Below, piece after piece: positions 15,791 to 34,979 of a stretch of DNA of 40,682 nucleotides. A model generated the notes under the pieces. The model was not told the DNA's origin. It did not search any database and saw only the letters and a list, made by a program, of their open reading frames with translations. The stretch covers positions 1-40,682 of IMG/VR virus record IMGVR_UViG_3300030061_001844; one strand, given 5' to 3'. Position numbers and translations under genes: made by a program. How positions within the stretch are numbered: the stretch's first letter is position 1; every line of letters starts with the position of its first letter. Source of the stretch: a virus. Its lineage: Duplodnaviria > Caudoviricetes.

Positions 15791-16054
15791 CGCGCTCTTG
15801 CCGCGAAAAGGAGAGCAAGAACGCGTGACAACCGTATGGTTGGAGGCGCGATGGAATCGCGCCGGAAACCCGCGATAAAGCAACCGCGAAACGCGCTACT
15901 GCGCGACTGTTTCCCATGCGACATAGTGCATAAGCGCGTGGCGATTACCAGCGCGAATGCTTCGCGCTTTACCGCGAGTTCCTCGCGGAGTATTTGCCCG
16001 TCGCGTTAGCCGGAGTCGCGCTCGCGGCGCGACAATTTGCCCTCCTTAACCGCG
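15791..16054. other. CGCG-dense non-coding region at the strand switch (candidate ori, pac site or terminus)
   Basis: 19 CGCG tetramers counted by hand, followed by A/T tracts at about 16070-16111. Confidence 0.6.
15829..15843. promoter_or_regulatory. Operator-like site CAACCGTATGGTTGG, copy 2
   Basis: Identical to 14385-14399. Confidence 0.6.
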
Positions 16055-16155
16055 TGCGAAATACAGATATTTTTTTCGTGGGGGTCAAAAAAAAATTCCA
16101 GCCATTTTTTTATCAACCGCTATGTTCAAGGGTGTGGTTGTCCTCCCATCCACTA

Positions 16156-19100
16156 ATGCGTCCGAGTGTCCGTGTTGTTAAGTCGGTTGACGAGGGACTA
16201 ATCCTCAAGGAAACCAATCAACAGAAAAAAGACAAACGCAAAGCAGAACGCGATGCGGCAAGAAAAGCCAAAAAAGCGGCACGCAAAGCAAAAAAACGCG
16301 GTGAGAAACCACCAAAGCAAGTAAAAGTTGTTGACAAAAAACCCGCCGCGGAGGAAAAATTTGACCCGTTTGAAGGAAAAAATATCGACCCCGCACAAGA
16401 AAAGGCAAGGGAGAAAATAAAAGAGGCGGGTGAAAAAAGACGCGCTGAAAACGCTAAACGCGTAGATGCTTTGCGCGAAAAAGCAAGAAAAAGTCGCGAA
16501 AGAAGAAAGAAAGAACAAGAAGAGTCCGGGTTAAGCCCCGAAGAGTTCCGCGAAATGAAGGAACTTGAAAGACTCGTAGCCGAAGAAAAGAAGGCTAAAA
16601 CTGTCAAAGTAGTTGACCCTCCCGCTAAAGAAGAACCTCCTAAAGAAGAACCTCCTAAAGAAGAACCTCCTAAAGAAGAAAAGCCAAAGACCGTCAAAGT
16701 AGTTGACTCCGCAAAAGATGACAAAGAAGGAAAAGGCGGTAAAACACAAAGAGGTTTCGCGTCTTTAGCACCTTACATGGCTGAATTAGTCAGTCGATAC
16801 AAAGATGAAGAAATAGACGCGACTGAATTTTACGAAGACATAGTTTTCGCTAACAATATGCTTTTGGGTCGTGCTTTAGGACAAGAGAAGGATGAAATGC
16901 TACAAGAGCGCGAAGATGGCTTTCCCGCTATGCTTCACGAACCATTCTTAAACGCGCCTGTTATGATGCATTTGAAGAGGTTGTCGAATGAGTTCCCCGA
17001 ACTCAAAGATGTGCAAAAAGCAGATGAAGAAATGAACGGTAGTTTAGAAAATGCTATGGGCGGAACGCGAGGAATACGCGCTGATATTTCATCCTTCATC
17101 GCAGACCCATTGAATGAGGGCAGACCTCATCAAGAAAAAGACATCAATGGTATTTACAAACTTCTTAACAAATACGACCACCCTCTCGGTGTCACGCTGT
17201 CGGCGGAGATACCAAAGAGTGACCGTATCGTTCCCACTTACAGACCAAGAGAAGCGCGAAAAATTCGTGTTGCTGGTCGAATGCAAGACCCTTCATTTGA
17301 ACAAGAGATGAACCGATTACGCGATGAGCAGATGGAGAACTTGAAGTTTAGAGAAGATAAACGATTTACTACGGACCGCGATAAAGGCGGAGCGAGTAGA
17401 TTTTACGATAAGTTGTTCGGAGAAGGTGAAGTCAACCTAAGAAGAGAAAAAGGACAAGAAGGCCAGTCAAGTTTTCAACTTAAAAACCCTTCATCATCAA
17501 CAACACAATCCATACTCAACCAAGTGCGAGATATTGCGCGTGAAGAATCTGTTGATGAAAAAACCGCTTACAAAAAAATGATGGAGAAGTTCAACGATTA
17601 TATGATTTCATTGACAGGGAACAAAGCGTTCGGAACATCGGGGCGCGCAGGTAGAACTGGACAAGAAATAGAAGTTGGGCGTTCGCCGGACGCAATTACG
17701 CCTTCTATGGTTGATGCCGCGAAACAACTTGGGTTGTCTTCTGCTGTGGCAAACATGCCCGATTTGTTAGTGAGTCGATACATGAAAGACCCTAAAAGTG
17801 CATTCAGTCAAAAAACGCGTAATGAATTGGCCGATGAGTTAGCGGGTATGGGTCAAGAAGGTTTTCACCCAACGCTAATATCTGCTATGGGTGAAGAAGG
17901 ACTCTTGAGTAGTCTATTTGGTGATGAAAGCGCGGTGACTGTCGAGGGTGCTGGGCCGGGTGGTTCACAAGAAGAAGTGGAACAAAGAGCCAGTGAAGCG
18001 CGAAGAGCAAGATTTGGTGGGGTTGCAACTGAATCTTCAATGATGGAACCCGAAGATGAACTCGCGGTTGTTCAAGGTAAAAGAAAATTATCACCATCTC
18101 AACGAATGACACAACTTGAGCGACAATTCAATCAAGGTGATATTGACGAGTATGAATACGAAATGCAACGCGCGGCAATCAATTTAGACCAACACAAATT
18201 AGACTCGGATGCTGAATTAGGTGGCTTAACTGGTAATGATTTCGAGGTTGGTCACGCGTATCACGGTTTGAGTGAAGAAAAACTCATCGAACAATCAAAT
18301 AATTTTGTTGACAACCTCATCGGTATGGCGCGCATAATGCGAGAAATACGACACAAAGCATACGATAACAATGGTGCGGAAACAGACCAAGAAAAACACG
18401 ATGTTGATAAGAAGTTGGAGGCTATTGGTTTAACCGCAGAAAACTTTGTTGCTTTTGGTAATATTGAAAACGCAACATACGAAGACAAGCAACGCTACAA
18501 CAAACTCGATGAAATCATAAGCCCGGAACAATTAGTTAATACAGCAAAAAAAGGTGATAAGCCAAAAATGAAGACTATTGCTGGCACAGGCACTTTAGCA
18601 GTAATGCTCCCTATTATGACTTCGCGGCTGAATCGACAACACGACATGATGAAAGATATTGGAATGTCAAATGTTGATTTAGTGAAAGCGGCGATGAAAT
18701 ACGCTAATGCTGATATGGGTGTGAATGGATACAAGGAGGCTTTTGCTTCGTTAGGGGCGCAAGCACAAAAAGGTAAATTGAACACATATCCAATATATCG
18801 TTTGTTGCAGTATTTGAGGAAAAAAGGATACCGTGAAGCACTCGATGAAGCGCACCATCAAAAAGTCGAAGAACAACAACGAAAGTTTGCAAAGAACCAC
18901 ACTGCGCGTCAAGCAATGAAAGAAGAGGCTAAATTCACACCTGCTTCGGAATACGATATTGAGGCAGGTGCGCCCGAACACATGGAACATATACTCCACG
19001 ACAAAGAAAAGTGCCTTTCATGTCACGAAGACCGATTTGGCACAAGAGATGCACCAACAGCGCGAGCGCATTCACCAGTTAAGGGTGATAAATCACCCTT

Positions 19101-22100
19101 TGCTCACAAGTCTATCACACTCCCGCAATTTACAAATTACAAAAAACGCGGACAAGATTTCCCATTAGATGTCACCGGCTCTACTGAAAATGAAACTTCA
19201 CTCGCCGCTATATTGAGGCACATTTACCCCGAAGATGACAGATACAACCACAAAAAGTTGATGAGTCGAAAACAAAAATATCTTGATAATCCAAAATTAA
19301 ACACTTACGAAGGGTTCATCAAACCTACAACTCGACAGTTCAAAAATAAAATCAAGCAAGCGGTTATCACAGGTCACCCACGCGCGGCTAACATTTTCAA
19401 GAAGTTTGGACTTTACCGAACAAAGGAGAACGGAATAGCAACTGGCCCAGCAGGGATGAGCAACAAAGAGTTGGTTGCTTCTTCATTCTTCATGAACAAC
19501 GACGATTCAATCGACAAGCACCAAGAATCAATGCGTAAGAGAACACTTCTATCGACGCGTTTCAATGCGATTACTGATGCTATGCATTTCATGGAAGAAC
19601 TCGCAGACGGCGACTATGGTAGCAAAATCAAACCGGGTGCGCTAAAGAGTAGAGCCAACCGAATCGCGTTATTGGGTGAGATGATAAATGAACCCACTAA
19701 AGGTATTCAAAAAGAAAATAGAAAGATTGAGAAAAGAAAGCGGGAAATTGATACTTACAAAAACCTATATCGACAATATATAGATGATAAAATGGCTTAT
19801 GATGCTAATTTAGCAAAAACGAAACCAACATATCAATTGTTTAATGAATTGACAGGAAAAATTCGCGGTGAATTTGAAACAAAAGAAGATGCAGAAAAAG
19901 CAATCAAGAATATGAAAGATAAAGACAACAAACCCGATACTTACATGCAAAGTATCCACTCGGTTCAAGAACAACGCGGTGAATATGATTCACCGGGTCA
20001 AATAGCAATGATTGAAGCACAGGCTGATGAAATCGACAAGAAATATGGTAAAATGTTGATGCTCCGTAAGAAGAAATTGAGAGAGATAAAATCATACGAA
20101 AAGAAAGCCGCTAAGTTGAAAGACGCGAGCGAAGATAACATCAATCGAACAAATGAATACATGCTTGGCGCGTTTATCAATTCGGGCGATAAGATGGCTA
20201 ACATATTCACCAAGATGAAAAAATCACCGGAGGGTGTAAGTCAACACGCTTTGATGGGTATGCTCGCTGAATTGCATGATGATATGTATGGCGATGATGA
20301 TTATGATTCGGTGCTTAGAGGCGACGCGAGTGGGAGAACGGACAAAGACTTCACTCATTCACTAAGCAACTATAAACTCGGTAGAATGGGCGAAATGGGT
20401 GGAACGGGTGTTATGAGTTTGACCAATAACAAAGCCCTCCCGCGAATCAATTCAATCAACCAACTGCTCGCTCATCGCATTCAAATGGGATTCCCTCTCA
20501 CAGAAGAAGATATTGAGCGCGCTAAGGGTATGTTGCATGATGCTGATATGGCGGATACTGTTGACAAAGAAGATTATAATGAGTGGTCGAAAGGTTTGAC
20601 CATAGATGATGATGTTGATTTCAATATGTCCGAATTAGAACATGAGCATCATGATGATTCCGAAGACGACTTGGGGTTGCTAACAGAAGAAGAGGCGGCG
20701 CGAAGAGAACAAAACTCACACTTTACAAAAGGTAGTGAAAAGGCGATAGAGAACGGTGACATTGAAGCCCATAATTTAGTATCCAATTGGAGAGGTAATG
20801 CACCAACTTTGTGCGGTGTATGTCACGGACATCGGTTCGTGACAAGAGATGAAGCGGTATCATACATTCGTCATCGCATACCCGGTATGGAAGGTGTAGG
20901 TCGCGAGAGTTCAAAGATGAACAACTATATCGCTAACAAAATGAGGCCGCGTGGGTTTGCTTCTTACGATGAACACCCTATGGCTGATGAAATGGACCCG
21001 AATGAACACGAACAATTCGCGTGTCCAGCCTGTGAGCATTCAAGTGACTATGTTCAAGGTGGTAAATGTAGCAACGGTCTTTGTGGTGATTGTTTTGGCA
21101 CAGGTGAGCGCGACCCAACGGATGATGAACATATCCAAGAAGGATACATAGACGCGGAGGGAAATAAAATTGATGGAAAAAACCACCACTATTCGCATAA
21201 TGGAATGGTGGGTGAGAAGTTCGATTACCTCAACCAACTTCTGCTAAGACATGCAGAAATGGCACAATCGGGTGAAATACCGGATTATTTGAAAGATATA
21301 GTCAAACCTCAATCACCAGTGTGGGAGCAGTTTGATAAGCATGTAGGTTCGGGTAAATTTCAAACATTTGAAGATGAGCGTGAAGCGCGCAGAAAGAAGA
21401 AATTAGAACCGTTGGTGATTGACCCTAACGCGCCGGAACTACCCGCCCCACCACGCGCGAGAAGTCAATTCCGAATCGAACAACCCGACGAAGGTGGTAT
21501 GCCGCAGATTGACTTCGATATGAGTGAAGAAAAACCTTTCCAACTAAATATTGTGAACAATTTAGCAATGCAAAAGCATCATGAGATATTTTTGAAGAAG
21601 CATCTTGACATTCTATACAAATCGGCTCTTCAAGGTCAACCCCAAATGAAAGAAGAAATTAACGAATTATACGCCAGCATCGTTAATGACCCAGCACTAC
21701 AAGACATTCACAATGACGAAGACCACCATTTGATTGAAAAAATACACGAACTACAAGAAATCGCGGATGCGAATTATGTTGATGATATTAGCGACATCGC
21801 GAGTTTGAGTGCTAAAGAGAGAAAGGCGATGCGCGCAAAACGAAGACAGTTGCCTGTTGACGAAAACGGTGATTTGCAATTGACTATGGATGATGTGTTT
21901 GGTGGAAATGCGCCAATGTCTTTCAACGCCTTCGATAAATATACTCCTAAACACGGACACATGCAAACAGAAACCGAAATACGAGAAGGGTTATTTGAGC
22001 CGGGAGAAGACAATCAACCAAAACCAGTGACAATGAAGCAATTGAGAAGTTTTTTCATGGGGCGACCGGATGTATTGAAAATGCTCAATAGAATTGAAGC

Positions 22101-23259
22101 CAGTGAAAAATACAAATCGGAGAGTGCTGAAAAAATTAAAAGCGCGCTTGATAGTGTTGAAAAACCATTAGTGGCGCGAAAAACAGGCAATATGTATAGC
22201 GAATCACTCAATGATATTTTGAAGCAGTTTGGTGAAAAACCAATGACACAAGAGATGGGTTCTTATCAATTGACTTACAGTGATGAAGCGTTAAAAGCAT
22301 TTAAAGAAGCGGGAGCAACAAATGTTAATTCATTGATGACTGTCAAAAACAAAAATAATCTAAATCGTGCATTAGATGAAGGATACACCCGCGAAAGAAG
22401 TGCAACGATGAAACCGTTATGGCAAGAGTATGTCATGCGAAAAGCACTTCAACACTTCATGTCGAATGTGAATAACCCTCTTCAATACCCAACAATACCA
22501 GCAGGTATCAATCAAAATAACTTCGCTGAAATGGTGGGAGAAAACAGCGGGTTGTTTCAATTGATGAAAGATGAGGCCGCGAAAGTTGCTGGTTATGAAG
22601 ACGAAGAAGATTTGGAAAAGAAACTCAACATGTCAACAAGCCCGACTGTCGGCGGTGTAAAGTTGAATGTTAACGAGTTTAAGGCAGATGTTTTGAAGAA
22701 TGCGACACACGAAGACTCACATCAACTGCCGATGGGTTATATTCGATACGATAAGAAGGGTAAAGGCAAAATGGTTGCTAAAGACGCTGAAACTATACTG
22801 AATGAAAGTCAAGAACAATTGTTAAAACCTAATGATATGAAGAAATACGAAAACGCGATAAGAACTGTCAACTACAACATGAGGCCAAACTACATGAGAA
22901 TGAAAGAGATTAGGAGTGTATTGCATGGCGAAGACGGCAAACACGACGGCTACGATGGTTATGAAGAACTTGCAACAGCATTTACCAACAAAGCATTACC
23001 GGCGGAACAACAAGCGTTGTTAGAAACCAGTGGTCCGTTGTTGAAATTATCTCATCGACACCTTACTCCAATTTCTTTTGCTGACGCGCAATCGTATGCT
23101 TTAGCCGCGGAAGAAAATAAGAAATTCCAAGAAGGACTGAAAGCGCGACGAGAAGGAACATTGTTAGGTCCAGTGCCTATCACTCAACCAATTCAGCAAC
23201 CAATTCAACAACCAATTCAACAACCCCAACAACAAATTGATTTCAACATGGATTCTTGA
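16156..23259 (+). CDS. Giant (2367-aa) charged protein with Cys/Zn motifs; possibly virion-internal
   Basis: Likely start ATG 16156 (MRPSVRVVKS); the upstream TTG extension runs through the non-coding CGCG tract. K/E-rich; CLSCH, CGVCHG, CPAC and CGDCFGTG motifs. Confidence 0.85.
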   Translation: MRPSVRVVKSVDEGLILKETNQQKKDKRKAERDAARKAKKAARKAKKRGEKPPKQVKVVDKKPAAEEKFDPFEGKNIDPAQEKAREKIKEAGEKRRAENAKRVDALREKARKSRERRKKEQEESGLSPEEFREMKELERLVAEEKKAKTVKVVDPPAKEEPPKEEPPKEEPPKEEKPKTVKVVDSAKDDKEGKGGKTQRGFASLAPYMAELVSRYKDEEIDATEFYEDIVFANNMLLGRALGQEKDEMLQEREDGFPAMLHEPFLNAPVMMHLKRLSNEFPELKDVQKADEEMNGSLENAMGGTRGIRADISSFIADPLNEGRPHQEKDINGIYKLLNKYDHPLGVTLSAEIPKSDRIVPTYRPREARKIRVAGRMQDPSFEQEMNRLRDEQMENLKFREDKRFTTDRDKGGASRFYDKLFGEGEVNLRREKGQEGQSSFQLKNPSSSTTQSILNQVRDIAREESVDEKTAYKKMMEKFNDYMISLTGNKAFGTSGRAGRTGQEIEVGRSPDAITPSMVDAAKQLGLSSAVANMPDLLVSRYMKDPKSAFSQKTRNELADELAGMGQEGFHPTLISAMGEEGLLSSLFGDESAVTVEGAGPGGSQEEVEQRASEARRARFGGVATESSMMEPEDELAVVQGKRKLSPSQRMTQLERQFNQGDIDEYEYEMQRAAINLDQHKLDSDAELGGLTGNDFEVGHAYHGLSEEKLIEQSNNFVDNLIGMARIMREIRHKAYDNNGAETDQEKHDVDKKLEAIGLTAENFVAFGNIENATYEDKQRYNKLDEIISPEQLVNTAKKGDKPKMKTIAGTGTLAVMLPIMTSRLNRQHDMMKDIGMSNVDLVKAAMKYANADMGVNGYKEAFASLGAQAQKGKLNTYPIYRLLQYLRKKGYREALDEAHHQKVEEQQRKFAKNHTARQAMKEEAKFTPASEYDIEAGAPEHMEHILHDKEKCLSCHEDRFGTRDAPTARAHSPVKGDKSPFAHKSITLPQFTNYKKRGQDFPLDVTGSTENETSLAAILRHIYPEDDRYNHKKLMSRKQKYLDNPKLNTYEGFIKPTTRQFKNKIKQAVITGHPRAANIFKKFGLYRTKENGIATGPAGMSNKELVASSFFMNNDDSIDKHQESMRKRTLLSTRFNAITDAMHFMEELADGDYGSKIKPGALKSRANRIALLGEMINEPTKGIQKENRKIEKRKREIDTYKNLYRQYIDDKMAYDANLAKTKPTYQLFNELTGKIRGEFETKEDAEKAIKNMKDKDNKPDTYMQSIHSVQEQRGEYDSPGQIAMIEAQADEIDKKYGKMLMLRKKKLREIKSYEKKAAKLKDASEDNINRTNEYMLGAFINSGDKMANIFTKMKKSPEGVSQHALMGMLAELHDDMYGDDDYDSVLRGDASGRTDKDFTHSLSNYKLGRMGEMGGTGVMSLTNNKALPRINSINQLLAHRIQMGFPLTEEDIERAKGMLHDADMADTVDKEDYNEWSKGLTIDDDVDFNMSELEHEHHDDSEDDLGLLTEEEAARREQNSHFTKGSEKAIENGDIEAHNLVSNWRGNAPTLCGVCHGHRFVTRDEAVSYIRHRIPGMEGVGRESSKMNNYIANKMRPRGFASYDEHPMADEMDPNEHEQFACPACEHSSDYVQGGKCSNGLCGDCFGTGERDPTDDEHIQEGYIDAEGNKIDGKNHHYSHNGMVGEKFDYLNQLLLRHAEMAQSGEIPDYLKDIVKPQSPVWEQFDKHVGSGKFQTFEDEREARRKKKLEPLVIDPNAPELPAPPRARSQFRIEQPDEGGMPQIDFDMSEEKPFQLNIVNNLAMQKHHEIFLKKHLDILYKSALQGQPQMKEEINELYASIVNDPALQDIHNDEDHHLIEKIHELQEIADANYVDDISDIASLSAKERKAMRAKRRQLPVDENGDLQLTMDDVFGGNAPMSFNAFDKYTPKHGHMQTETEIREGLFEPGEDNQPKPVTMKQLRSFFMGRPDVLKMLNRIEASEKYKSESAEKIKSALDSVEKPLVARKTGNMYSESLNDILKQFGEKPMTQEMGSYQLTYSDEALKAFKEAGATNVNSLMTVKNKNNLNRALDEGYTRERSATMKPLWQEYVMRKALQHFMSNVNNPLQYPTIPAGINQNNFAEMVGENSGLFQLMKDEAAKVAGYEDEEDLEKKLNMSTSPTVGGVKLNVNEFKADVLKNATHEDSHQLPMGYIRYDKKGKGKMVAKDAETILNESQEQLLKPNDMKKYENAIRTVNYNMRPNYMRMKEIRSVLHGEDGKHDGYDGYEELATAFTNKALPAEQQALLETSGPLLKLSHRHLTPISFADAQSYALAAEENKKFQEGLKARREGTLLGPVPITQPIQQPIQQPIQQPQQQIDFNMDS
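16625..16680 (+). repeat. 15-bp tandem repeat (about 3.7 copies) encoding KEEPP
   Basis: CTAAAGAAGAACCTC x3 plus a partial copy. Confidence 0.95.
23185..23225 (+). repeat. 12-bp tandem repeat encoding QPIQ
   Basis: CAACCAATTCAR x3 plus CAACC. Confidence 0.9.
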
Positions 23260-23322: not shown

Positions 23323-23388
23323 GAGAAAGAGGTGAATCAACATGCTTATGTATCGTTCGCGACACGCACTACTCAAGGAGATACGGTT

Positions 23389-23907
23389 ATGCAACAACAA
23401 ACCCCCCAAAATAAAGATGAATTGAGAGTGTTAGGACTTATTTCATTTGTAAGCATACTTGTCGGATGCGCGATTGCTGTTTTCGATGCTGGATTGTGGC
23501 TTACATCACCCGATACTTACACGAACGCTATAACATACACGATGGGCGCGTTCACATTACAAGGAATGGCTTATTTTATTTACAAGATGTTAGCGCAAGA
23601 TGGCATGGACCAACGCGCTATTGTTTCAAATATGCAACGCAACATGACGCGTCAAATGCAAAACCAACAAATGCGATTTGCACAAGCGCAAATGGAAATG
23701 GAGATTAAAAAACAAGAAGTTAATTTCGCAAAACAAATGGAGGCGTTGGAGCAAGACCCCGAAGTTCAACAATATCTTGGTTTGATGGGTATGAATGAAG
23801 AAACAGAAGCACCGAAGCACAAAGCAGACACTAAAAAACCCATGAAATTAGGCAATCAAACCAGCGGCAGAAATCCCGATGGCACTTACAAAAAGAAAGG
23901 GAAGTGA
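23389..23907 (+). CDS. Two-TM membrane protein with Gln/Met-rich coiled coil
   Basis: Likely start ATG 23389 after AAGGAG. Hydrophobic VLGLISFVSILVGCAIAVF and AITYTMGAFTLQGMAYFIY, then a Q/M-rich helix. Confidence 0.8.
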   Translation: MQQQTPQNKDELRVLGLISFVSILVGCAIAVFDAGLWLTSPDTYTNAITYTMGAFTLQGMAYFIYKMLAQDGMDQRAIVSNMQRNMTRQMQNQQMRFAQAQMEMEIKKQEVNFAKQMEALEQDPEVQQYLGLMGMNEETEAPKHKADTKKPMKLGNQTSGRNPDGTYKKKGK

Positions 23908-23912
23908 TTTGA

Positions 23913-24149
23913 ATGGGTTGGTTGTTTAAAACACCAAGCGATGATGCAACAGAAGCGACTTTACGCGCGTTGCATACACAAAATACACTCGATACTTATT
24001 ATGAAAAGGGCAAAGCGTTGATATTTTGTATAATTACAGGTGTAGTCACCGCGTTGAGTGTGTCTTGGTTTGAACAAGCAAGCGATGTGAGCGTTTGGGA
24101 AAGCACAGTTGAGTGGTTTTACGAAAAACTTCGCGGGTGGGTCAACTAA
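23913..24149 (+). CDS. Small single-pass membrane protein
   Basis: ALIFCIITGVVTALSVSWF; Trp-rich amphipathic C-terminus. Confidence 0.8.
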   Translation: MGWLFKTPSDDATEATLRALHTQNTLDTYYEKGKALIFCIITGVVTALSVSWFEQASDVSVWESTVEWFYEKLRGWVN

Positions 24150-24871
24150 TGGTTGCAACATTCGCTGGAAGCGCGCTCATGGGAGCAGTAGTTTATGGAA
24201 AAGAACTCTATAATTTTCTTAAACCACGCAGAATAGGTGTTTATGGTCCAACAATGGTGGGTAAAACAACTCTTGACCATTTTATGCGCACTCCGGGCGA
24301 GATGGATGATATAGATGAACGCACTATGCACCCGAAACGGCTTATTGGTGGTGGTTATGTCTTACCAAAAGCGTCGCGTAAGCGTCTTCGTTGGCAAGGA
24401 GAGAAAAGAGTAGTTCATTCTGCTGATATTGGCGGTCAACAACGGTTTTGGAATCTTTGGATTGATGATATGGTCGATAGACAAGTTGAAATTGTCGTTT
24501 TTTTAACCGATACGCGTGTTTTGACAGGTAATGGGGCGCAAATTATAGACGCGGTGGGTGGATTTGAATACCTCGTTGATTCTTTGATTGAAAAACGGTG
24601 GAAATATCGCTCACTAAAAACAAGACTTCGCGGAAAACGCTATTCCCCTAAACAAATATGGCTCGTTGCTAACAAAGCGGATGAGTGGTGGGACGATAAT
24701 GCGAATATTTTGTGGCAATCTAATCGTTTGCGAGAACATAAAGTGTTTGATGCTCACCGCCCAGCCATGCGGAGGCTTCAAAAAGCCGGTATTCCTTGTC
24801 GCGTTAGCATGATGGCGACTAAAATAGGCTGGAATGTTGAAAAAACGATGATAGAAATGTTAACTTGGTGA
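24149..24871 (+). CDS. Ras-superfamily small GTPase (Arf/Rab-like)
   Basis: Start ATG 24149 (TAATG overlap). G1 GPTMVGKTT, G3 DIGGQ, G4 NKAD, G5-like MATKIGWNVE. Confidence 0.88.
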   Translation: MVATFAGSALMGAVVYGKELYNFLKPRRIGVYGPTMVGKTTLDHFMRTPGEMDDIDERTMHPKRLIGGGYVLPKASRKRLRWQGEKRVVHSADIGGQQRFWNLWIDDMVDRQVEIVVFLTDTRVLTGNGAQIIDAVGGFEYLVDSLIEKRWKYRSLKTRLRGKRYSPKQIWLVANKADEWWDDNANILWQSNRLREHKVFDAHRPAMRRLQKAGIPCRVSMMATKIGWNVEKTMIEMLTW

Positions 24872-24875
24872 TAAA

Positions 24876-25766
24876 ATGCTTGGAAATAAACCTCAAAACG
24901 ATTTACTGACGCTTGCCGCACAAACACAGATGAGTCTTGCTCAAATGCAACAGCAAGCGACCGCTCAAGCCGCTATGACGAACGCAAAATCGCATATTGA
25001 AGTGCCTCAAGTCAATTTTTACCCCTCTCGTCATCCAAATCCTAAAAAAGCGCGCCGTCAAGACATAAAACAGGCATATAAACTCCTAAAACCGATAAAA
25101 AGAAGCATTTTTTCGCCTCGTAGGTGGTGGGGAGGCAAATATCGCTATAATACTAACACAATGCGCTGTGTTGTGGACGGATGTGATGTTGAATACCTAT
25201 TACGGACCGCTGGAAACATCTATGAGCAGGTTATTGACGAAGAAACTGGTCAATCTCTATGGGATTTGTATTGGAAAAACCCTGTGACTGGTGAAGTTGA
25301 AGCGTTTGTAGCCCGCGAAAATGTCACTTCGGGGCGTAAATTGAAGGGGACATATTGCCCCGAACACCTCCATTTATACCATTTATTGACAAAATGGCTT
25401 AAAGAAGACGAAAAAGAAGAAGAAGAAACTAATGGAACACTCAAAGCAAAACTGAAAAGAGGTGTTTCAACCGTAGTTGTGCCAATAAATAGCATCAAAA
25501 AGAAGGATAACACACCACCAATTCTCGCAAAATATGAGCCATTTTTTGAAATGTTGAAAAAAGACAACATTCCTGTGACACATTTTGCTAACTCCGCGAC
25601 AGGAACGAATGATTTGGTTATGGTTGTCTTCGATATGCGTCAATTTCAAGCGGGTAATAACTCAAGGTTGCTTTTTGACGCTCTTGCTATGCATCAATTA
25701 CAACAAAACGCGGTGCAATCTCACCCATTGCCTTTACCGACACAATCAAATGATGGGAGCATGTGA
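24876..25766 (+). CDS. Hypothetical protein with putative Zn site and Gln-rich termini
   Basis: CVVDGC...YCPEH; Q/A-rich N-terminus. Confidence 0.8.
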   Translation: MLGNKPQNDLLTLAAQTQMSLAQMQQQATAQAAMTNAKSHIEVPQVNFYPSRHPNPKKARRQDIKQAYKLLKPIKRSIFSPRRWWGGKYRYNTNTMRCVVDGCDVEYLLRTAGNIYEQVIDEETGQSLWDLYWKNPVTGEVEAFVARENVTSGRKLKGTYCPEHLHLYHLLTKWLKEDEKEEEETNGTLKAKLKRGVSTVVVPINSIKKKDNTPPILAKYEPFFEMLKKDNIPVTHFANSATGTNDLVMVVFDMRQFQAGNNSRLLFDALAMHQLQQNAVQSHPLPLPTQSNDGSM

Positions 25767-25775
25767 GGTGGTATT

Positions 25776-26354
25776 ATGGTGTGGCCGTTCAGCAATAACC
25801 AACAACAACCTCAACCGGGTGCTATGAACCTCGGATTAGCCGGTGGACAACAACAAGTTCCTATGCAGGGACAACAGCAACAATGGGGTCAACAACAGTA
25901 TGGGTTGCAGTATCAAGCACCTCCGACTGAAATGGAGATATTATCAGCCATGATAACATCTAACCCTATGATTGATAAGTGGCTTTCCGACAATAACGGA
26001 GAGAATATGAATATGCTCGTTTCACTTTTGAGTAGTCTTGTCGCGGTATCAGTGAATACAATGCTTACAAATACGCGCTTAGTTGAAGATGGAGATGGAT
26101 ACAAATTCGATTTTAGCGGTGTCACAGGTATGCCAACAGTCGATAGTGTCACAATGTCACAAACCCAAATACTCAACAAAGCATCAAACAATGTGCAACA
26201 GAAAACCATGCAGTTTCAACAGATGGTTCAACTTGCAAATCAAGGTGTTATGCAAAGTATGTTGAATGACGCGATGGCTGACCCCGGCATGATGCAAAGT
26301 GTTGGTGGCGGTCTTGGTTCATTGGTTCGTGGATTAGCAACAGGTGGTAGGTAA
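25776..26354 (+). CDS. Gln/Met/Gly-rich low-complexity protein
   Basis: GAGGTGG RBS; poly-Q N-terminus, hydrophobic central helix, C-terminal GGGLGSLVRGL. Confidence 0.8.
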   Translation: MVWPFSNNQQQPQPGAMNLGLAGGQQQVPMQGQQQQWGQQQYGLQYQAPPTEMEILSAMITSNPMIDKWLSDNNGENMNMLVSLLSSLVAVSVNTMLTNTRLVEDGDGYKFDFSGVTGMPTVDSVTMSQTQILNKASNNVQQKTMQFQQMVQLANQGVMQSMLNDAMADPGMMQSVGGGLGSLVRGLATGGR

Positions 26355-26587
26355 TGGACATAACTTCTCTTTACACAGCAGTTAGTGATATGACTAACTT
26401 GCGCAAATCAGTAATTGTTGATATGATTATGGTGCAACTTATCGCGCTTACGCTTGGTTGTTTCCTCATTTTAGTGTTTTCCGGCCCAAAAATGAGTTCA
26501 ACTGATTTGAGTTGGATTATTGGTGCGCTTTTCGTCTGTTTCAGCGCAACAGGTATCGTTTATCGCCGCCTCGGACAACAAGGTTGA
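26354..26587 (+). CDS. Small two-TM membrane protein (holin-like topology)
   Basis: Two hydrophobic segments and a basic C-terminus YRRLGQQG. Confidence 0.75.
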   Translation: MDITSLYTAVSDMTNLRKSVIVDMIMVQLIALTLGCFLILVFSGPKMSSTDLSWIIGALFVCFSATGIVYRRLGQQG

Positions 26588-26848
26588 CCATTTATTGATA
26601 GGGCATTTGCTGTTCTTGAAAATGGTTTTTGCTTTCAAAAAACAACCACATAGATTGCAACGGTCGTGGGTTCGTTCGGGACATCTCAAACAAATGTTGT
26701 ATCTTCGTTCGCGTTCTGCCAAGTCAACTCTTTTGTTAGTGACAATATCAGCCGCGGCTCGCGTGAGGCTTTTTGCTGTCGATATGGAAATGGGGATACC
26801 TGCTACTTTACGCGCTCTCGGCAATCTCTCTCTCATAGAAACACTCAT
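26498..26848 (-). CDS. Small Cys-rich protein (DUF6171-like)
   Basis: RYNICLRCP...RCNLCGCFLKAKT...KCPINKW pattern. Confidence 0.7.
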   Translation of the reverse strand: MSVSMRERLPRARKVAGIPISISTAKSLTRAAADIVTNKRVDLAERERRYNICLRCPERTHDRCNLCGCFLKAKTIFKNSKCPINKWSTLLSEAAINDTCCAETDEKRTNNPTQIS

Positions 26849-26873
26849 TTGATACCGCTACTTGGTCTTTGCT

Positions 26874-27542
26874 ATGGCGGAGCGTATAACAAGGGCATCT
26901 TGTAATTTCTGCCAAGACCCCGACCGTGACGGTATAGAAGAAATGTTGAGGGCTGGGTTAATCACCGCTAAAGATTTAGACAAACAAAAAGGATGGCGAG
27001 AAGGCACTGCTGACCGTCATTTTAGAAACCACATGGGTGAATACCACATGTCTTCAAACAGTGAGTGTAAATTATGCACATCACCAAAGCGCGAAAACTT
27101 AGAGTTGGCGTATTTTAACGCGTCAATGACCGTGGCTGAAATAGCAGAAGATATGCAGATGCCCGATTCAAGTGTTTATCATCATCTTAAACATCATCTC
27201 AAACCTGTTGTTCAAAAAGGTGCGGCTGACCTCATTATAGTTGAAGCAGGTCAAGAGATGCAAAGCATACGAAACAATTTATCCCGACTCAATGGTGAAC
27301 TTGGTCATTTTCTTGATGACGCAGACCGCAACGACCCTCAATATGTTCGCAACATAGTATCTTTACACAAAGAAGTTCGCGAAACGGTCAAAGACATCAT
27401 GAGGGTGCAAGAGCGCGCGGCTGGAACTACTAACGAAAACATGACTGCACAGACCATAAACATACTCAAAGTTGAATTAGCGAAGGAGTCACCCGAAGTT
27501 TGGGCGCGACTTCGCGGCAAGTTGATTGGTGGTGACGAATAA
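26874..27542 (+). CDS. Tandem CxxC...HxxxH Zn/HTH protein; candidate terminase small subunit or regulator
   Basis: CNFC...RHFRNHM and CKLC...HHLKHHL repeats, then a coiled coil; upstream of terL in the same operon. Confidence 0.6.
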   Translation: MAERITRASCNFCQDPDRDGIEEMLRAGLITAKDLDKQKGWREGTADRHFRNHMGEYHMSSNSECKLCTSPKRENLELAYFNASMTVAEIAEDMQMPDSSVYHHLKHHLKPVVQKGAADLIIVEAGQEMQSIRNNLSRLNGELGHFLDDADRNDPQYVRNIVSLHKEVRETVKDIMRVQERAAGTTNENMTAQTINILKVELAKESPEVWARLRGKLIGGDE

Positions 27543-28828
27543 TGGTTGGTGGACCCGAAGGGAGTAGCAAAGGGTTAAGATTCAACCCACGACACAGCGC
27601 AGAAGAATTACAAGATGATTCAACGGTTGGTCGCGAAGATTCCGAAGAGCGTGCGCGGCATGATGCGAAAAAGCGTGAAACTCAAGATAAGCGCGCCAAA
27701 CAATTACAAGGTCTTCAACACATGAAAATTAAAGTTCCTCAAAAGCACGATGAGGATGAAGAAGACAGCGACATGAAGCGACAAGCAGAAGCAGGTCAAA
27801 TGTCGGGTCAAGTGGGTCAAAACGAAGCCAACGCTGGTGCTAACCCAAAGGGTGGCGGTGGTGGACTCAATATGTTGCTTTCAACTGCACCGTTCATTGA
27901 CGATGCATTTGAGATGATTCGTAAAAAGAAAGACGAGCCTAAATACGATGATGAGAAACCTAAGAAAACTACCACTATTGATACTGCTTTGTCGCGAAGA
28001 CGCGCTAAAAAGGGTAAGCGGTCAAGAAAACAAGGTAAAAAAACCACTGAATCAATGAAGGGTAGAAAGGGCAACAAGAAACAATTGAAAGGTGGGAATG
28101 TCCGTCAACCATCTATCGCTTCAACAATGAGTGCGGCTCGCGCTCCTTACACATCATTCGGTTTAATGGGGACACGAAGACCGACACCCACTGGTCCAAT
28201 TCGATTGAATGTGTCAACAGGCCGTTCACAAGCAAGAGGGAGTTATGAAAACCCGCGAAAAAGATTGGCACAAGATGTTCGACAAGAACTGCGTCAAGAT
28301 TCTCCTACTCAAGATATAACACCCCCAATGCCGACCATTACAGCACAATCGAGAAAACCACGCGCTGTGCGAGGGTCAAGAGATTCAAGACCACATAGTA
28401 AAGCAATGCGTCAACCGCGAACAGCGAAAACACCGGGTGGTGCAGAAGCCGCTAAAGAAATTGCTCTTGGTGGTAGCGCGTCTGCTATGGCCGCTGGTGG
28501 GTTGGGTTCTTCGGACGACGCAATTCTCGCATCCGAAGAGTTCTTGATTAAGCGCGCACAGCGAGTTAAACTCACTAACCGCATTTCACCACGCGACCGT
28601 ATTGAATATCGTCAACTCATCGACCAACTCAACCATTTATTGCGACGCATGATGCGTAAAGCAGACGCGAGTGGCGATGATGCACCAAGCGGTGCTACAC
28701 CGAATCAAGGCACGAAGCGTATGACATCCGCACCGACAGGGCCAACTGAAACCGACCCCGAAGATGACCCTACGATGTGGGGGACTCACCCGTATGATTT
28801 GTATGTAAGACGAGGTGGTATGACATGA
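27542..28828 (+). CDS. Disordered basic protein
   Basis: 428 aa, R/K/G/P/S-rich; TAATG overlap. Confidence 0.8.
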   Translation: MVGGPEGSSKGLRFNPRHSAEELQDDSTVGREDSEERARHDAKKRETQDKRAKQLQGLQHMKIKVPQKHDEDEEDSDMKRQAEAGQMSGQVGQNEANAGANPKGGGGGLNMLLSTAPFIDDAFEMIRKKKDEPKYDDEKPKKTTTIDTALSRRRAKKGKRSRKQGKKTTESMKGRKGNKKQLKGGNVRQPSIASTMSAARAPYTSFGLMGTRRPTPTGPIRLNVSTGRSQARGSYENPRKRLAQDVRQELRQDSPTQDITPPMPTITAQSRKPRAVRGSRDSRPHSKAMRQPRTAKTPGGAEAAKEIALGGSASAMAAGGLGSSDDAILASEEFLIKRAQRVKLTNRISPRDRIEYRQLIDQLNHLLRRMMRKADASGDDAPSGATPNQGTKRMTSAPTGPTETDPEDDPTMWGTHPYDLYVRRGGMT

Positions 28829-30597
28829 GCGATATTATCCTCAAGGGTAAGGGCGTGTGGTATCGCGATGGTGAAGGAGTGATGCACCCACAATCTTTCC
28901 CTCCAACAGATTCCGACCACGAAAATATATCTCATTTTCACATTAACTCTAAGACAGGAAAACCATTCAAAGAATTGGGTGGTAAAGGCTTAGTAGGTAA
29001 GTTTCCTATCGAGATTGCCGCTGGTATTTTAGCCCGCGAATTGATGTCGCAAGGATACAAAGATGAAACAGGAGCAAGAAGAAAACCAGTGAGTGAGGCT
29101 TCAGCGTTGCGTTTAGCAAAAACTGTCTTCAACAATGCAACCAAGCGTTTCAATGACATTAAAAGAAAGGCTGGTGATGATTTCAATGTTCTCCCTATGA
29201 AGTTTGATGAAAACGGCATATTGAATGACGAATACAAGAATAATCATTACGGAGGACATCAACCGCGCCGTGTTCGGACTGCGAAGAGAACAACGCGAAC
29301 AAAAGATGGAAAAGTCATCAATAATCACCCGCGTAATCAACTACACGATGACCTCGGACAACATCTTGAATCCGCGGCTTTGCATATTTTTGATGAGTTG
29401 CGACAAGAAGCAGAAAAAATGGGCGTTAGCACAGAACTCGCGGCACAGCAAAATGTTATCGAGCCACAACAAATAACAGATGGTGTCACTCATCGCTACA
29501 CTTCAAATGATGCAGACCCCACATCTAAGTCAAACACAAAATATCCAAATCACTACAAAGACCTACATGCGCAAACTGCGGCATACGGTGAAATATCACC
29601 TATGGATATTGTTTCCGTATTACCAAACGACTTCTTTGTCCCGTCAACAGGAGGCGGAATGTCAACAAGAATAATGAATCAACTTAGAGATATGGGATAC
29701 GACCAACCTACGGCTCGTTCGATGGCTCGCGCTCCTGTGAATCAATTACTTTACGGCAGTGGTAAAGAAGGTCGAGAAAGTGGACTCAACAAGGTAGTTC
29801 GCAACATGCGCGCTAAATTACAAGTCGATTCAAATAATGATATTCATGCCATGTTCAAGAATCACCGCGACCATATTGCACCAAAAATAAGGGGTGGCGA
29901 TAACGGGAGGAATAACAAAGCAGTTGAGATATTGGCTTTGTTGAAATTAGCAGAACAGATGGGAGTTGACCCCGCTCAATACTCGATGTATCAACAAGCA
30001 CCTCAATCCGTAATGGGGGGTTGGCGTGATGTTGCTACGGCAGAAGGTGGTAAGCAAATAGATATGGAGGCTCTTGGGAGTGTCAATGAAGGACACAGCA
30101 TGAGAGGTAAATTTGCGGGTGATATGGACCACATTTTTAGAGAGTTTCCCGACCACTTAAGCGGCGGCTCACCCGCTGATGTTTTACCAGCGCAACCGAT
30201 TTTGGACGATAAACCAATGAGTGAACCTGCACCTGCTTTGACTACACAACCTCAACTCGCGCTCCCTTTGGGGCAACAACAAGATTTGTCACAATTTAAT
30301 CCGTTCTCCGCAGGGAGAGAATTTGCAATGTCCGATGACGACCCAATGGGTGTCATCGCGACTATCATGGAGCGTGTGCAATTACATGAAGCAGGTGGCT
30401 CTTTATTGGTAAAATATGACCCTATGGATAATTATGATATGCAACGATTGGGTCAAAATGTTGGCCTGTCGAGTCTTGATGTTCGCGCGATTGCAATGTC
30501 GATTGGTGATTGGGATGTTTTGGCGAAATCTTTTAACACGACGCATGATGTGGTCCGCGACATCAAGCGTGCTTGTGGAGGCGTAATTTATGGTTGA
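28825..30597 (+). CDS. Hypothetical protein
   Basis: 590 aa; GAGGTGG RBS and ATGA overlap. Confidence 0.85.
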   Translation: MSDIILKGKGVWYRDGEGVMHPQSFPPTDSDHENISHFHINSKTGKPFKELGGKGLVGKFPIEIAAGILARELMSQGYKDETGARRKPVSEASALRLAKTVFNNATKRFNDIKRKAGDDFNVLPMKFDENGILNDEYKNNHYGGHQPRRVRTAKRTTRTKDGKVINNHPRNQLHDDLGQHLESAALHIFDELRQEAEKMGVSTELAAQQNVIEPQQITDGVTHRYTSNDADPTSKSNTKYPNHYKDLHAQTAAYGEISPMDIVSVLPNDFFVPSTGGGMSTRIMNQLRDMGYDQPTARSMARAPVNQLLYGSGKEGRESGLNKVVRNMRAKLQVDSNNDIHAMFKNHRDHIAPKIRGGDNGRNNKAVEILALLKLAEQMGVDPAQYSMYQQAPQSVMGGWRDVATAEGGKQIDMEALGSVNEGHSMRGKFAGDMDHIFREFPDHLSGGSPADVLPAQPILDDKPMSEPAPALTTQPQLALPLGQQQDLSQFNPFSAGREFAMSDDDPMGVIATIMERVQLHEAGGSLLVKYDPMDNYDMQRLGQNVGLSSLDVRAIAMSIGDWDVLAKSFNTTHDVVRDIKRACGGVIYG

Positions 30598-32359
30598 AAG
30601 TTGGGAAATAGAATGGAATAGCAGTATGATTGAACACGGTCGCGACTTAGGAACTATGGAATTTATTTTCGCAAAAGGCGGCAACCTCTCGGATATGAAC
30701 TATGTTATGTTCGATGTTCAAGACAACAGTTGGGAACCACTTATCAAGGCTGTCGCGGAGCGCGACAACTCTCACCCCGACATTATTCGGAAGAATGCTG
30801 AACCGTTCATGGCTAACCGCGACCAACGAGCCGCGCAACCATTCATGGGAACAGCAGTGACAAGTCCTCGTCAAGCAACGCAACAATACAACACAGCACA
30901 GCGAATGTCCAACCTCGCTAACTACGACGCTGACCCTACCGCAATGAACGCTATGCGCGCCGGAAAATACGGAACAGCCGCAGGTAAAGGTCTTGCCGCC
31001 GCAGGTCGCGGTATCATGGGAGCAGGTCGAAAAATGGGCGAGATGGGCGGTCGTGCTATGGCTGGTGCAAAAGATATGGGTGGTCGCGCTCTTCAAGCAG
31101 TAAAAGACAGTGGTATGGGCCAACGCATGAAGAACTTCATGGGTGCGGCAGGTCGTGGACTTAGCGACTTACGACATGCCCCAGCCGCGGCAAAACAAGC
31201 ATTTAGAGATAGTCGCGCAAGACGCGAAGATGAAGAACGAAGAAATGCACTTGAAGGTGGTCTTGGTCGCGGGTCAAAAATGGAAGCAGAAACCGAGCGA
31301 AGAATGGTTCCGGGTAGTCAAAACTTTGACGCAAACATGGATAGAGCGCGGGGAGCCATCAATCAACAACTTGCTCGCGATTTCAATGTTAATCCAAATA
31401 CTAACAAAAAAGGTAAGCCGACTGAATCAGTTCAAGATGCCATGCGTCGTGAAATTCAAGAAATTGGTGACAGACGCGCTCAACCAAAAGAAGGTTTCTT
31501 CGCTGGTATGAGCCGCCGCGGACGCGAGCGACGCGCTGGCAATCAAGCACAAGCAGAAGGAGCGGCATACGCGCCTTCTAACATGGCAACCGATGAGCCG
31601 GAACGAGTGCCTCTCCCTGCTGGACCTTCAACTGACGCGGAGCAAGCGGCAAACGCAGACAAAGTTCCCGAACCGGAAATTGAGTTTGATATGACCGAAC
31701 CGGAAACAGGAACACCACCACAAGACGCGGGGCAACCAATGAAGGTTGAAGCCGAAGAGAGCGCATTAACTGATAAACAAAAACAGGCTATGGAGATGTT
31801 TGACAAAGTGCAAGAAAACAAGCGCAAGCGAATGGCTATGGAAGGTGGTGCAGAAACCACCGGCGACCTATTCGTTGACGACGAAGGTGAAGTCATAAAC
31901 CCAGCACAAACGGAAACCGCTACGGCTACTGAACCATCTTTCGGACAAAGATTTGCTACCGAGGCTGGTATGAAAATGGGCGCACCTGCGGGTGATAGAG
32001 TCCGTGGTGGATTAGACAAAGTGTTCGGCCAACACCAAAAAACTCCATTCGCTGACCGCGATGCGGCAATGCAAGCCATGTTGCAAAGTGGTGTAGGAAC
32101 AAAAGGGATGACTACTGCTGGTAAGTTCAGTGGCAAATCAGCACAGGCTGTTGAAGCGGCTTTGATGGAAATGGGCTTTGGCCCAGCAGAAGCAAAAAAT
32201 GTCGCGCAACAAGCAGAAGCAGGTAATCCCGATGCAAAAGAAATTGTTGAAGAAGCAATAGATTTCGACATGGGTGAAGATGCTATGGGAATGAAACTAA
32301 GTGAAGACAACCACGCGGCATCATGGGATTCTGTTTTGAAAGGACTTAATGTGCGGTGA
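30590..32359 (+). CDS. Ala/Gly/Met-rich, largely disordered protein
   Basis: 589 aa; GGAGG RBS; overlaps the terL start. Confidence 0.85.
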   Translation: MVESWEIEWNSSMIEHGRDLGTMEFIFAKGGNLSDMNYVMFDVQDNSWEPLIKAVAERDNSHPDIIRKNAEPFMANRDQRAAQPFMGTAVTSPRQATQQYNTAQRMSNLANYDADPTAMNAMRAGKYGTAAGKGLAAAGRGIMGAGRKMGEMGGRAMAGAKDMGGRALQAVKDSGMGQRMKNFMGAAGRGLSDLRHAPAAAKQAFRDSRARREDEERRNALEGGLGRGSKMEAETERRMVPGSQNFDANMDRARGAINQQLARDFNVNPNTNKKGKPTESVQDAMRREIQEIGDRRAQPKEGFFAGMSRRGRERRAGNQAQAEGAAYAPSNMATDEPERVPLPAGPSTDAEQAANADKVPEPEIEFDMTEPETGTPPQDAGQPMKVEAEESALTDKQKQAMEMFDKVQENKRKRMAMEGGAETTGDLFVDDEGEVINPAQTETATATEPSFGQRFATEAGMKMGAPAGDRVRGGLDKVFGQHQKTPFADRDAAMQAMLQSGVGTKGMTTAGKFSGKSAQAVEAALMEMGFGPAEAKNVAQQAEAGNPDAKEIVEEAIDFDMGEDAMGMKLSEDNHAASWDSVLKGLNVR

Positions 32360-33768: not shown

Positions 33769-33959
33769 CTGATTGTAATTGTGAATTTTGTGTAGGCGGC
33801 GAAGCCGCGTTTGGCTATCTTGAAAAGAAATTATGTCCGGCTGGTAAGGCCGCGGCCAAGCGGAAGTTCAAGGTTTATCCAAGCGCGTATGCGAATGGTT
33901 GGGCTGTTCAATACTGTCGCGGTAAGTTCCGTAAGAAGAAGGGAGGGAAGAAGAAATGA
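33765..33959 (+). CDS. Small basic protein (YPSAYAN motif)
   Basis: KRKFKVYPSAYANGWAV resembles a recurrent small basic module of marine viruses. Confidence 0.75.
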   Translation: MTDCNCEFCVGGEAAFGYLEKKLCPAGKAAAKRKFKVYPSAYANGWAVQYCRGKFRKKKGGKKK

Positions 33960-34159
33960 TTCCTCTTGAAGAAGCGTGGGCTTTGATGAAAGCCAAGAAA
34001 GACGCGCCGAATTATCGCCCTTGTGAAAGTAGCAAGTGCTGTGGTAATTGTAAAGCGTGGGACGATTCAGCAACAGAAAGCCCTCAAACGGGATATTGCG
34101 AGTGGTATGATTTCACTTGCAATAAGGATTATACATGTGATGCGTGGGCGGGTAAGTAA
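33956..34159 (+). CDS. Cys-rich microprotein with HiPIP-like Cys spacing
   Basis: NY...CCGNCKAW...GYCEWY...YTCDAW. Confidence 0.65.
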   Translation: MIPLEEAWALMKAKKDAPNYRPCESSKCCGNCKAWDDSATESPQTGYCEWYDFTCNKDYTCDAWAGK

Positions 34160-34833: not shown

Positions 34834-34979
34834 TGACTCAACCTGTTGTGTATCACAGTTGTTGCTACACAGCAGATAAGTCATATCCTTTTGGATTTTG
34901 TAAAAAGTGTTGGGAGAAAAACGGTAGTCCGCAAACAATGGCTTGGAATAAGAGAAAGGTGAATCGCGTTGAAAATTGA
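34833..34979 (+). CDS. 48-aa Cys-rich microprotein
   Basis: Manual translation MTQPVVYHSCCYTADKSYPFGFCKKCWEK...; TAATG overlap; fills the gap. Confidence 0.65.
   Translation: MTQPVVYHSCCYTADKSYPFGFCKKCWEKNGSPQTMAWNKRKVNRVEN

Follow-up and report, generated by a model that had tools for sequence, protein, structure and literature searches.

The GTPase gene and its cassette

The genes described here lie in a 40.7-kb stretch of viral DNA that was analysed at its full length and is called the window below (table 1). One of them is, by its motifs and its modelled fold, a genuine gene for a predicted small GTPase of the Ras superfamily. Its product carries G1 (GPTMVGKTT), G3 (DIGG), G4 (NKAD) and a G5-like motif (ATKIG) in canonical order within one G domain, as is characteristic of Ras-superfamily small GTPases, and G1, G3 and G4 occurred in this order in 6 of 100,000 shuffles of the sequence. 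The ATG at 24149 gives a protein matching the length of the family, whereas the alternative GTG at 24113 does not. The strings quoted in the original prediction were all found: MVATFAGSALMGAVVYGKELYNFL (residues 1-24), DIGGQQRFWNLW (93-104), KRWKYRSLKTRLRGKRY (149-165) and ATKIGWNVE (223-231).

Table 1. Coordinates of the cassette, of parts of the GTPase and of other genes in the window
Feature	Position	Strand	Length (aa)	Characteristics
Pyrimidine-dimer glycosylase	2816-3328	-		left arm
DUF932 protein	7441-9501	-		left arm
SAP-domain protein	11834-12220	-		left arm
SF2 helicase	12243-13820	-		left arm
Large protein	15994-23259	+	2421	immediately upstream of cassette; several Cys-x-x-Cys motifs
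u2	23332-23907	+	191	strong hydrophobic segment 33-51; Gln/Met-rich, probably coiled-coil, region; 77/80 loci
u1	23913-24149	+	78	one predicted membrane segment; 79/80 loci
GTPase	24149-24871	+	240	helix, G motifs and inserts, from motif reading and predicted model
GTPase, N-terminal segment	24149-24226	+		residues 1-26; scanned for moment and hydropathy; modelled helix 2-24
GTPase, G1	residues 33-41
GTPase, switch I	residues 58-59			Arg58-Thr59, followed by an insert
GTPase, G3	residues 93-96
GTPase, switch II Trp	residue 104
GTPase, basic insert	residues 149-165
GTPase, G4	residues 175-178
GTPase, G5	residues 223-227
d1	24876-25766	+	296	soluble; invariant C98, C161, H164; 80/80 loci
d2	25776-26354	+	192	Gln-rich; one hydrophobic stretch, Gly-rich C-terminus; 79/80 loci
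d3	26354-26587	+	77	two predicted membrane segments; 80/80 window-type loci
DUF6171 gene	26498-26848	-		small, Cys-rich; right after cassette; homolog in 78/80 window-type loci
Context outside cassette	26862-38210	+		HTH protein (possible small terminase), large terminase and portal
Large terminase	32356-33768	+
ORF between terminase and portal	34969-36360	+	463	YAAGFLDADG motif; PHROG endonuclease match
Portal	36360-38210	+

Searched as a single sequence, the GTPase matched nothing in Pfam, PHROG, NCBIfam or the PDB sequences. An AlphaFold2 model built from 44 relatives (pLDDT 77.7) shows an N-terminal helix followed by the G-domain topology, with the six strands of a small GTPase in the predicted structure. 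Structure prediction thus returned a small-GTPase fold with no single family preferred: fold searches with the model (Foldseek and VIA) retrieved small GTPases at Z 13-14.5 with no clear winner. The VIA scores were 14.5 for an Asgard RagA-like protein, 14.3 for Arf6, 14.2 for SR-beta, 13.8 for a mimivirus Rab, 13.7 for Sar1 and 13.4 for G-alpha, and the top ranks in Foldseek were Rab33, a Rac and GerdArfR1. The model is least reliable in switch I (pLDDT 54-59 over residues 41-60), so Arg58 was placed from the sequence alone.

The GTPase gene belongs to a tightly spaced cassette, in which the stop codon of u1 overlaps the GTPase start (TAATG). The order u2-u1-GTPase-d1-d2-d3 was kept in all 73 window-type loci with enough flank (80 examined, many of them near-copies), and the order u2-u1-GTPase-d1-d2 in all 67 such loci of a second lineage (80 examined, again with many near-copies). 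Extra DNA between the GTPase gene and d1 was seen in L062, L066, L068 and L077 (about 190 bp) and in L064 (10482-11542; about 1 kb), with the gene order kept. Between the window and second lineages, d1 and d2 are homologous (E 4.6e-5 and 1.5e-5), the u1 proteins match weakly (E 0.012) and u2 has no direct match; a third lineage, of which two of four loci were read, bridges the u2, d1 and d2 of the other two. The cassette lies upstream of the terminase genes in the window lineage, and in the second lineage it directly follows the genes for the capsid. These differing sites, together with the bridging third lineage, indicate that it moves as a unit.

The invariant cysteines and histidine of d1 likely form a metal site, and fold and atlas searches with this protein gave nothing clear (best Z 5.2). 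By size and topology only, d3 is holin-like, and it was not seen at its position in the second or third lineage. None of the cassette proteins matched any holin family. Moreover, Pfam and PHROG identified neither a holin nor any other lysis gene among the 40 ORFs of the window, nor was one found among the 37 larger ORFs of a 103-kb relative (G001). Promoter and terminator scans gave chance levels only. The 2421-aa protein has no Pfam or PHROG match and diverges fast, with 23-74% identity among close relatives.

The virus and the viral GTPase family

The window carries terminase and portal genes without a replication block, and its relatives are genomes of 90-118 kb. The identity of the virus was therefore judged through G001, whose GTPase is 90% identical to that of the window. 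The PolB of G001 is uninterrupted, and its best phage matches lie in haloviruses. This genome also encodes a clamp-loader-like ATPase, a thermosome-like chaperonin, an SNF2 helicase and a DnaQ-like nuclease, and it has a weak match to an archaeal primase; a tail tube gene in the ~100-kb relative complements the terminase and portal of the window. The traits reported for group A magroviruses are a tailed genome of ~100 kb, a halovirus-like PolB, archaeal replication genes, a thermosome, an SNF2 helicase and a DnaQ-like nuclease (PMC5434244), and the virus is likely a group A-like magrovirus. The host is likely a marine archaeon; the same paper gives Poseidoniales as magrovirus hosts (PMC5434244). 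The capsid protein of the second lineage matches HVTV-1/HCTV-type haloviruses, and the GTPase profile found no match in HVTV-1 or vir335, two complete genomes that are related through their capsid protein. The motif in the 463-aa ORF between terminase and portal is one that we take to be of LAGLIDADG type. This ORF agrees with a report of a homing endonuclease in the structural modules of magroviruses (PMC5434244).

With the window GTPase as query, 411 proteins matched among 630 candidates, and with the second-lineage GTPase 346 among 533. A profile search of 1.84 billion representatives found 88, including the second lineage at ~30% identity, and the G4 pattern gave 585 relatives among 599 IMG/VR stretches. 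The family is so far known only from virus-type contigs, in three lineages of ~100-kb magrovirus-like genomes. Residues were counted in the best-scoring 121 relatives of the window lineage and 120 of the second. G1 was present in 120/121 and 118/120, respectively, NKxD at G4 in all of both sets, and Asp93 of G3 was invariant; the W-x-x-W of switch II occurred in every readable row of both lineages. The Arg-Thr pair in switch I was almost invariant (119/120 and 117/118), and an Arg directly before the switch I Thr suggests a built-in arginine finger like that of MglA.

The original prediction held that the catalytic Gln is kept. This copy does have Gln97, but the family mostly has Glu: position 97 was Q in 47, E in 57, D in 11 and H in 3 of the 118 window-lineage rows with readable G3 (121 examined), and Q in 36 and E in 81 of the 117 readable second-lineage rows (120 examined). 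Given this variation, the catalytic Gln is no feature of the family. In the third lineage (L813 and L816) the Gln position is occupied by His, as described for Sar1 (PMC3012027). The predicted basic insert before G4 is real in this copy, with seven K/R and no D/E in residues 151-166, and the other lineages have a basic segment in the corresponding position. The C-terminal ATKIGWNVE had been likened to SAKTG.NVE. The string is present, but its loose pattern is generic rather than diagnostic, occurring in 7/7 ArcoA, 7/8 Asgard RasL and 8/10 eukaryote-type Arf rows.

The N-terminal segment is a predicted membrane anchor. It had been described as hydrophobic or amphipathic in the manner of Arf, Sar1 or SR-beta, and both characters are present, not as one amphipathic helix but as two successive parts: an uncharged, hydrophobic, Gly/Ala-rich part and then the amphipathic YGKELYNFLKP. 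The hydrophobic moment was 0.07-0.20 in 11-residue windows starting at residues 1-11, which are uncharged or nearly so, and 0.54-0.59 in those starting at 15-16. The median best 11-residue moment was 0.60 and 0.67 in the two viral lineages (115 rows each) against 0.64 in 33 eukaryote-type Arf N-termini, so that the amphipathic part is as strong as in Arf or ArcoA. An amphipathic helix thus precedes the G domain as in the Arf family, yet it is itself preceded by a non-amphipathic hydrophobic stretch that is absent in Arf. The median best 17-residue hydropathy, 1.22 and 1.49 in the viral lineages against 0.03 in Arf and 0.39 in ArcoA, is marginal for a membrane span such as the N-terminal transmembrane anchor of SR-beta. 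With this added stretch, the segment looks more like a permanent anchor than like a helix that can retract.

Relatives and phylogenetic placement

Neither the window nor the second-lineage GTPase matched anything in 50,697 GenBank phage records, and a narrow profile (A1) gave weak matches only. A G3-motif scan of GTDB (63 of 64 parts), a kind of scan that cannot show absence, gave 120 loci, and no record title among them names Poseidoniales. Eleven of these loci were archaeal Arf-like GTPases. Five (L259, L265, L275, L279 and L300) were members of the viral family, three of them in bins labelled Maricaulis and one each in bins labelled Parvibaculum and Promethearchaeati; because L259, which was read gene by gene, carries the full viral cassette, all five were treated as mis-binned magrovirus contigs and not as cellular genes. 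Profile searches, with ~9-11 candidates scored per genome, found no match in the phylum of a Chloroflexota record (251 genomes), of a Pseudomonadota record (301) or of a Bacteroidota record (251).

Among 151 Asgard genomes, 28 matched the viral profile. An insert-bearing family of 212-224 aa matched best, at up to 55 bits; Heimdall Arf-like proteins extended at the N-terminus and ArfR-like proteins came next. Matches at 22-28 bits were found in 36 of 251 Halobacteriota genomes, the best being weak, N-terminal matches to ArcoA/OapA. Heimdallarchaeia and related bins (L309:333-1205, L274, L243, L264, L311, L298 and L255) encode an Arf-like GTPase of ~290 aa with a ~100-aa N-terminal Cys/His extension, sometimes in two copies per genome, whose best Pfam match is Arf. 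Environmental GTPases of 216-280 aa (P0206, P0356-P0375, P0197 and P0207) likewise have Arf Pfam matches and the switch II Trp; one member of the P0206 group is labelled Bacteroidia, and the P0206 and P0126 groups had no IMG/VR loci.

Reference sequences came from giant viruses, metagenomes and the genomes of bacteria, Asgard archaea and Halobacteriota; we named their groups from the motifs and from what Vargova et al. describe (bioRxiv 10.1101/2024.02.28.582541). The tree (62 rows, 160 columns, LG+C20 PMSF) came from a 112-row set from which 50 rows, including long-branch rows, were dropped, one mis-assigned row having been left out earlier; SR-beta, Sar1, G-alpha, Ras and Rho are outside its sample, and row P0001 has an odd residue make-up. 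The viral rows formed one clade (100/100) on a stem of 1.31 changes per site. This clade lies outside ArcoA/Era (97/85), outside MglA+ArfL+RasL+Rab+Rup1 (95/86) and outside core eukaryote-type Arf (99/95), and branches of 95/86 and 100/94 separate it from Rab/RasL/Rup1 in the best tree; giant-virus Rabs group with Rab/RasL, away from it. It falls in a fan with ArfR-like, Rup3-like, Rag and P0206 rows, whose order the tree does not settle. The P0206 group is its sister in the best tree with weak support (62/90), and of the 500 bootstrap trees (out of 1000) that were examined, 296 made the P0206 group its sister and 147 the Heimdall group.

AU tests rejected none of the alternative placements, namely with ArcoA (p 0.277), MglA (0.382), eukaryotic Arf (0.204), Rab/RasL/Rup1 (0.236) or the wider Arf family (0.421). 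The last of these, inside ArfR plus eukaryotic Arf, is not found in the best tree and had the smallest likelihood loss (3.4). In profile-profile comparison, the highest scores against the viral family were those of Heimdall Arf-like (116), the P0206 group (116), ArfR-like (110 and 108) and Rup3-like (100), a lead that is inflated since most of these groups were chosen with the viral profile. They were followed by eukaryote-type Arf (78), RasL (76), ArfL (75), Rab (74), Rag (73) and Rup1/Roc (70), then by ArcoA (67, over 64 columns), Era-like (59), MglA (52) and IF2 (26). For comparison, ArfR-like against eukaryote-type Arf scored 366, as against ~108 for ArfR-like against the viral family.

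With its fully supported clade and long stem, and nested in no sampled family, the GTPase represents the distinct viral branch of the Ras superfamily that was originally proposed. The nesting in an ordinary MglA, Roc or Era-like clade that a recent host acquisition would produce is not found in the best tree, and the depth of the family also argues against such an acquisition. The description of switch II as eukaryote-like fared less well. An Arf-type Trp is indeed present, but it is common to Asgard and other prokaryotic rows: all Asgard ArfR-like, ArfL-like, Rup3-like and P0206-group rows have it, and it is missing at the same column from the Rab, RasL, Rup1/Roc, Rag, MglA and ArcoA rows. 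The Trp therefore marks the Arf side of the superfamily and not eukaryotes; Trp counts in the eukaryote-type Arf and Heimdall sets are circular, because these were fetched with Trp-containing patterns. Relevance to the origin of Arf is weakly supported as well, since eukaryote-type Arf (78) scored no better than Rab (74) and RasL (76) and the AU tests are indecisive; with all five placements unrejected, the family at present says nothing on the origin of eukaryotic Arf. As judged from sequence comparison, it leans to Asgard Arf-type GTPases without being specifically eukaryote-like.

Literature searches on GTPases of magroviruses and archaeal tailed viruses found no paper on this family, although supplementary annotation tables may list the gene; "GTP" does not occur in the main text of PMC11706807. 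Automatic names at JGI and in the ESM Atlas already label some members GTPases. What we describe is apparently a deep, virus-specific Ras-superfamily family in a conserved membrane-protein cassette, Arf-leaning and not eukaryote-specific, which adds a deep branch to the prokaryotic Ras-type GTPases. The viruses that carry it resemble magroviruses, which are reported to be among the most abundant marine viruses (PMC5434244).

Possible roles and comparison with known systems

Tailed archaeal viruses are reported to lyse their hosts with players that are uncharacterised, and how they open the host envelope is described as an open question (PMC10791045). Against this background, the late-arm position of the cassette, its fixed order, its membrane segments and the lack of a recognised lysis gene lead us to favour, tentatively and at somewhat less than an even chance, a membrane-bound GTP timer that acts late in infection with neighbouring membrane proteins, remodelling the host membrane and in the end breaching it. 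The block would be co-expressed late, as suggested by the almost absent gaps between its genes and by its location among those for head and packaging. The hydrophobic-plus-amphipathic N-terminal helix and the basic insert would hold the G domain on the membrane, and Arg58 beside the switch I Thr may, like its MglA counterpart, supply an arginine finger from within the protein. With such a finger the Gln position could vary among Gln, Glu, Asp and His, and all that a partner (d1 or d2) would have to do is position the finger. The GTP state might then recruit or release the small membrane proteins, which would oligomerise into a lesion. Counting against this model, d3, the most holin-like gene, was seen in the window-type lineage only, the cassette proteins have no holin-family match, and the hydropathy of the N-terminal segment is borderline for a membrane span. 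Since HVTV-1 and vir335 have no GTPase match, the cassette would in any case be no general lysis solution of archaeal tailed viruses. We know of no GTPase-timed viral lysis system. A bolder version seems to us unlikely. In it, an ancient virus-only branch from the Arf side, taken up from an Asgard-like archaeon, would drive a self-activating machine that breaches the membrane on a GTP timer; this would be the missing lysis system of the abundant magroviruses and would put exit from the host under GTPase control in a prokaryotic virus.

A role in virion assembly or placement, with the cassette as a membrane-anchored scaffold or a virion-carried conduit for DNA entry and the GTPase as its switch, is doubtful, although it stands first among the rivals. 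In the lineages examined the block is found within the head and packaging arm, adjoining the 2421-aa protein and the terminase genes here and lying between capsid genes and a large protein in the others, and the Gln-rich d2 and soluble d1 are untypical of lysis proteins; but lysis genes are found among late genes too, the block moves between sites as a unit, and HVTV-1 and vir335 share the capsid type and have no GTPase match. We consider it quite improbable that the cassette takes over host shape or division as an Arco/Dip-like membrane GTPase module, stopping division and enlarging the infected cell. ArcoA (OapA) does share the amphipathic N-terminal helix and the RIGIYGP..GKTTL start, and a virus+ArcoA clade was not rejected (p 0.277). 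ArcoA is reported to work with a Zn-finger partner, and arcoABC is reported to be absent from Poseidoniia (bioRxiv 10.64898/2026.07.23.738820), both of which would suit this reading. Against it stand the ArcoA profile score of 67 over 64 columns, the D.PG motif, the missing switch II Trp and the 97/85 branch between the two. No cassette gene matched ArcoB (20 rows) or ArcoC (4 rows), the best probability being 14% over 16 columns, and an Arco origin of the cassette was rejected on this ground.

Vesicle budding or another non-lytic release, similar to Arf/Sar coats or to OapA, is very improbable: a tailed virion of ~100 kb is not expected to bud, and the extra hydrophobic stretch suggests a permanent anchor, even though an amphipathic helix directly precedes the G domain and the profile scores lie on the Arf side. 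Least probable of all is protection of the infected cell, by superinfection exclusion or counter-defence at the membrane. Small membrane proteins of phages often do this, but such genes are usually early, patchy and fast-changing, whereas the block order was kept in all 140 loci with room for it and its location is in the late arm. For budding there is the precedent of the archaeal GTPase OapA, which is reported to drive vesicle formation (PMC10791045) and which also speaks for the favoured membrane-remodelling model. The membrane-breaching reading and its rivals can be approached experimentally: a five-to-six-gene block ordered alike in three deep lineages offers named genes for tests in Haloferax and in liposomes, and Thr40, Arg58, position 97 and the N-terminal helix are named residues and parts for such tests.

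Compared with known GTPases, the viral family matches part of the Arf pattern. Features of Arf/Arl/Sar proteins are Gly69, Trp78, Arg75, a P-loop Asp and a Trp66 network in Arf1 numbering (PMC3012027). Gly69 and Trp78 are matched (G95 and W104, each in 13/14 viral rows), whereas Arg75 is not, position 101 being W in 11, R in 2 and H in 1 of 14; the P-loop Asp is missing (Thr35 in the window copy, no Asp in the other viral rows examined), Trp66 is replaced by an Ala before Asp93, and the conserved Gln71 has only the variable counterpart described above (Q in 47/118 and 36/117). What defines the Arf family is reported to be an interswitch toggle, driven by nucleotide, through which the helix is released (Vargova et al., bioRxiv 10.1101/2024.02.28.582541). 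Asgard ArfR (GerdArfR1, PDB 8OUN/8OUM, which are one protein) resembles the viral GTPase in DxGG at G3, the switch II Trp and an amphipathic stretch before strand 1. It was the best PDB sequence match of both viral family profiles (E 3.4e-10 and 2.2e-7), and HodArfR1 was not among the matches listed. The virus differs from it in the Arg-Thr of switch I, two inserts, the added hydrophobic N-terminus and the variable Gln. Heimdallarchaeia Arf-like proteins (L309, L274 and L264) also share DxGG, the switch II Trp and the amphipathic stretch, and have their own N-terminal Cys/His extension. The Asgard 212-224-aa family (L372-L384), probably the Rup3 of Vargova et al., a label that we infer, shares the switch II Trp, an acidic residue at the Gln position and a basic stretch before G4; it has neither the N-terminal helix nor the cassette, and both it and the P0206 group have D.PG at G3 where the virus has D.GG.

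Eukaryotic Arf/Arl, Sar1, SR-beta, Rab and giant-virus Rab have the same fold at 10-20% identity, and none is preferred by it. Rab, RasL and Rup1 have a DTAGQ-type G3 and no switch II Trp, and the viral GTPase fits neither. Rab-type GTPases have a C-terminal Cys anchor, whereas the viral protein ends in MLTW with no C-terminal Cys for prenylation. The Roc domain of Roco proteins is fused to COR, whereas the viral GTPase is a stand-alone protein of 240 aa and no COR match was found in it or its neighbours. MglA of Myxococcus and Thermus shares the Arg directly before the switch I Thr, which in MglA is reported as an intrinsic arginine finger, Arg53 beside Thr54 (PMC3199381). It differs in having Thr for the G3 Asp (rows TV[PA]G), no switch II Trp and no membrane helix, and its profile score of 52 was the second lowest; no Roadblock/MglB Pfam match was found among the neighbours of the viral GTPase, a search that a very divergent one could escape. 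Finally, ArcoA/DipA/OapA (HVO_3014), a membrane-bound Ras-type GTPase that occurs in Euryarchaeota, DPANN and some Asgard archaea and bears an amphipathic helix at its N-terminus, has a strand 1 and P-loop nearly identical to those of the virus. Its match is confined to the first ~90 profile positions, and it differs in D.PG at G3 followed by a hydrophobic residue and in the absence of the switch II Trp. The viral family thus combines a switch II Trp as in Arf, an arginine as in MglA and an N-terminus resembling that of ArcoA.
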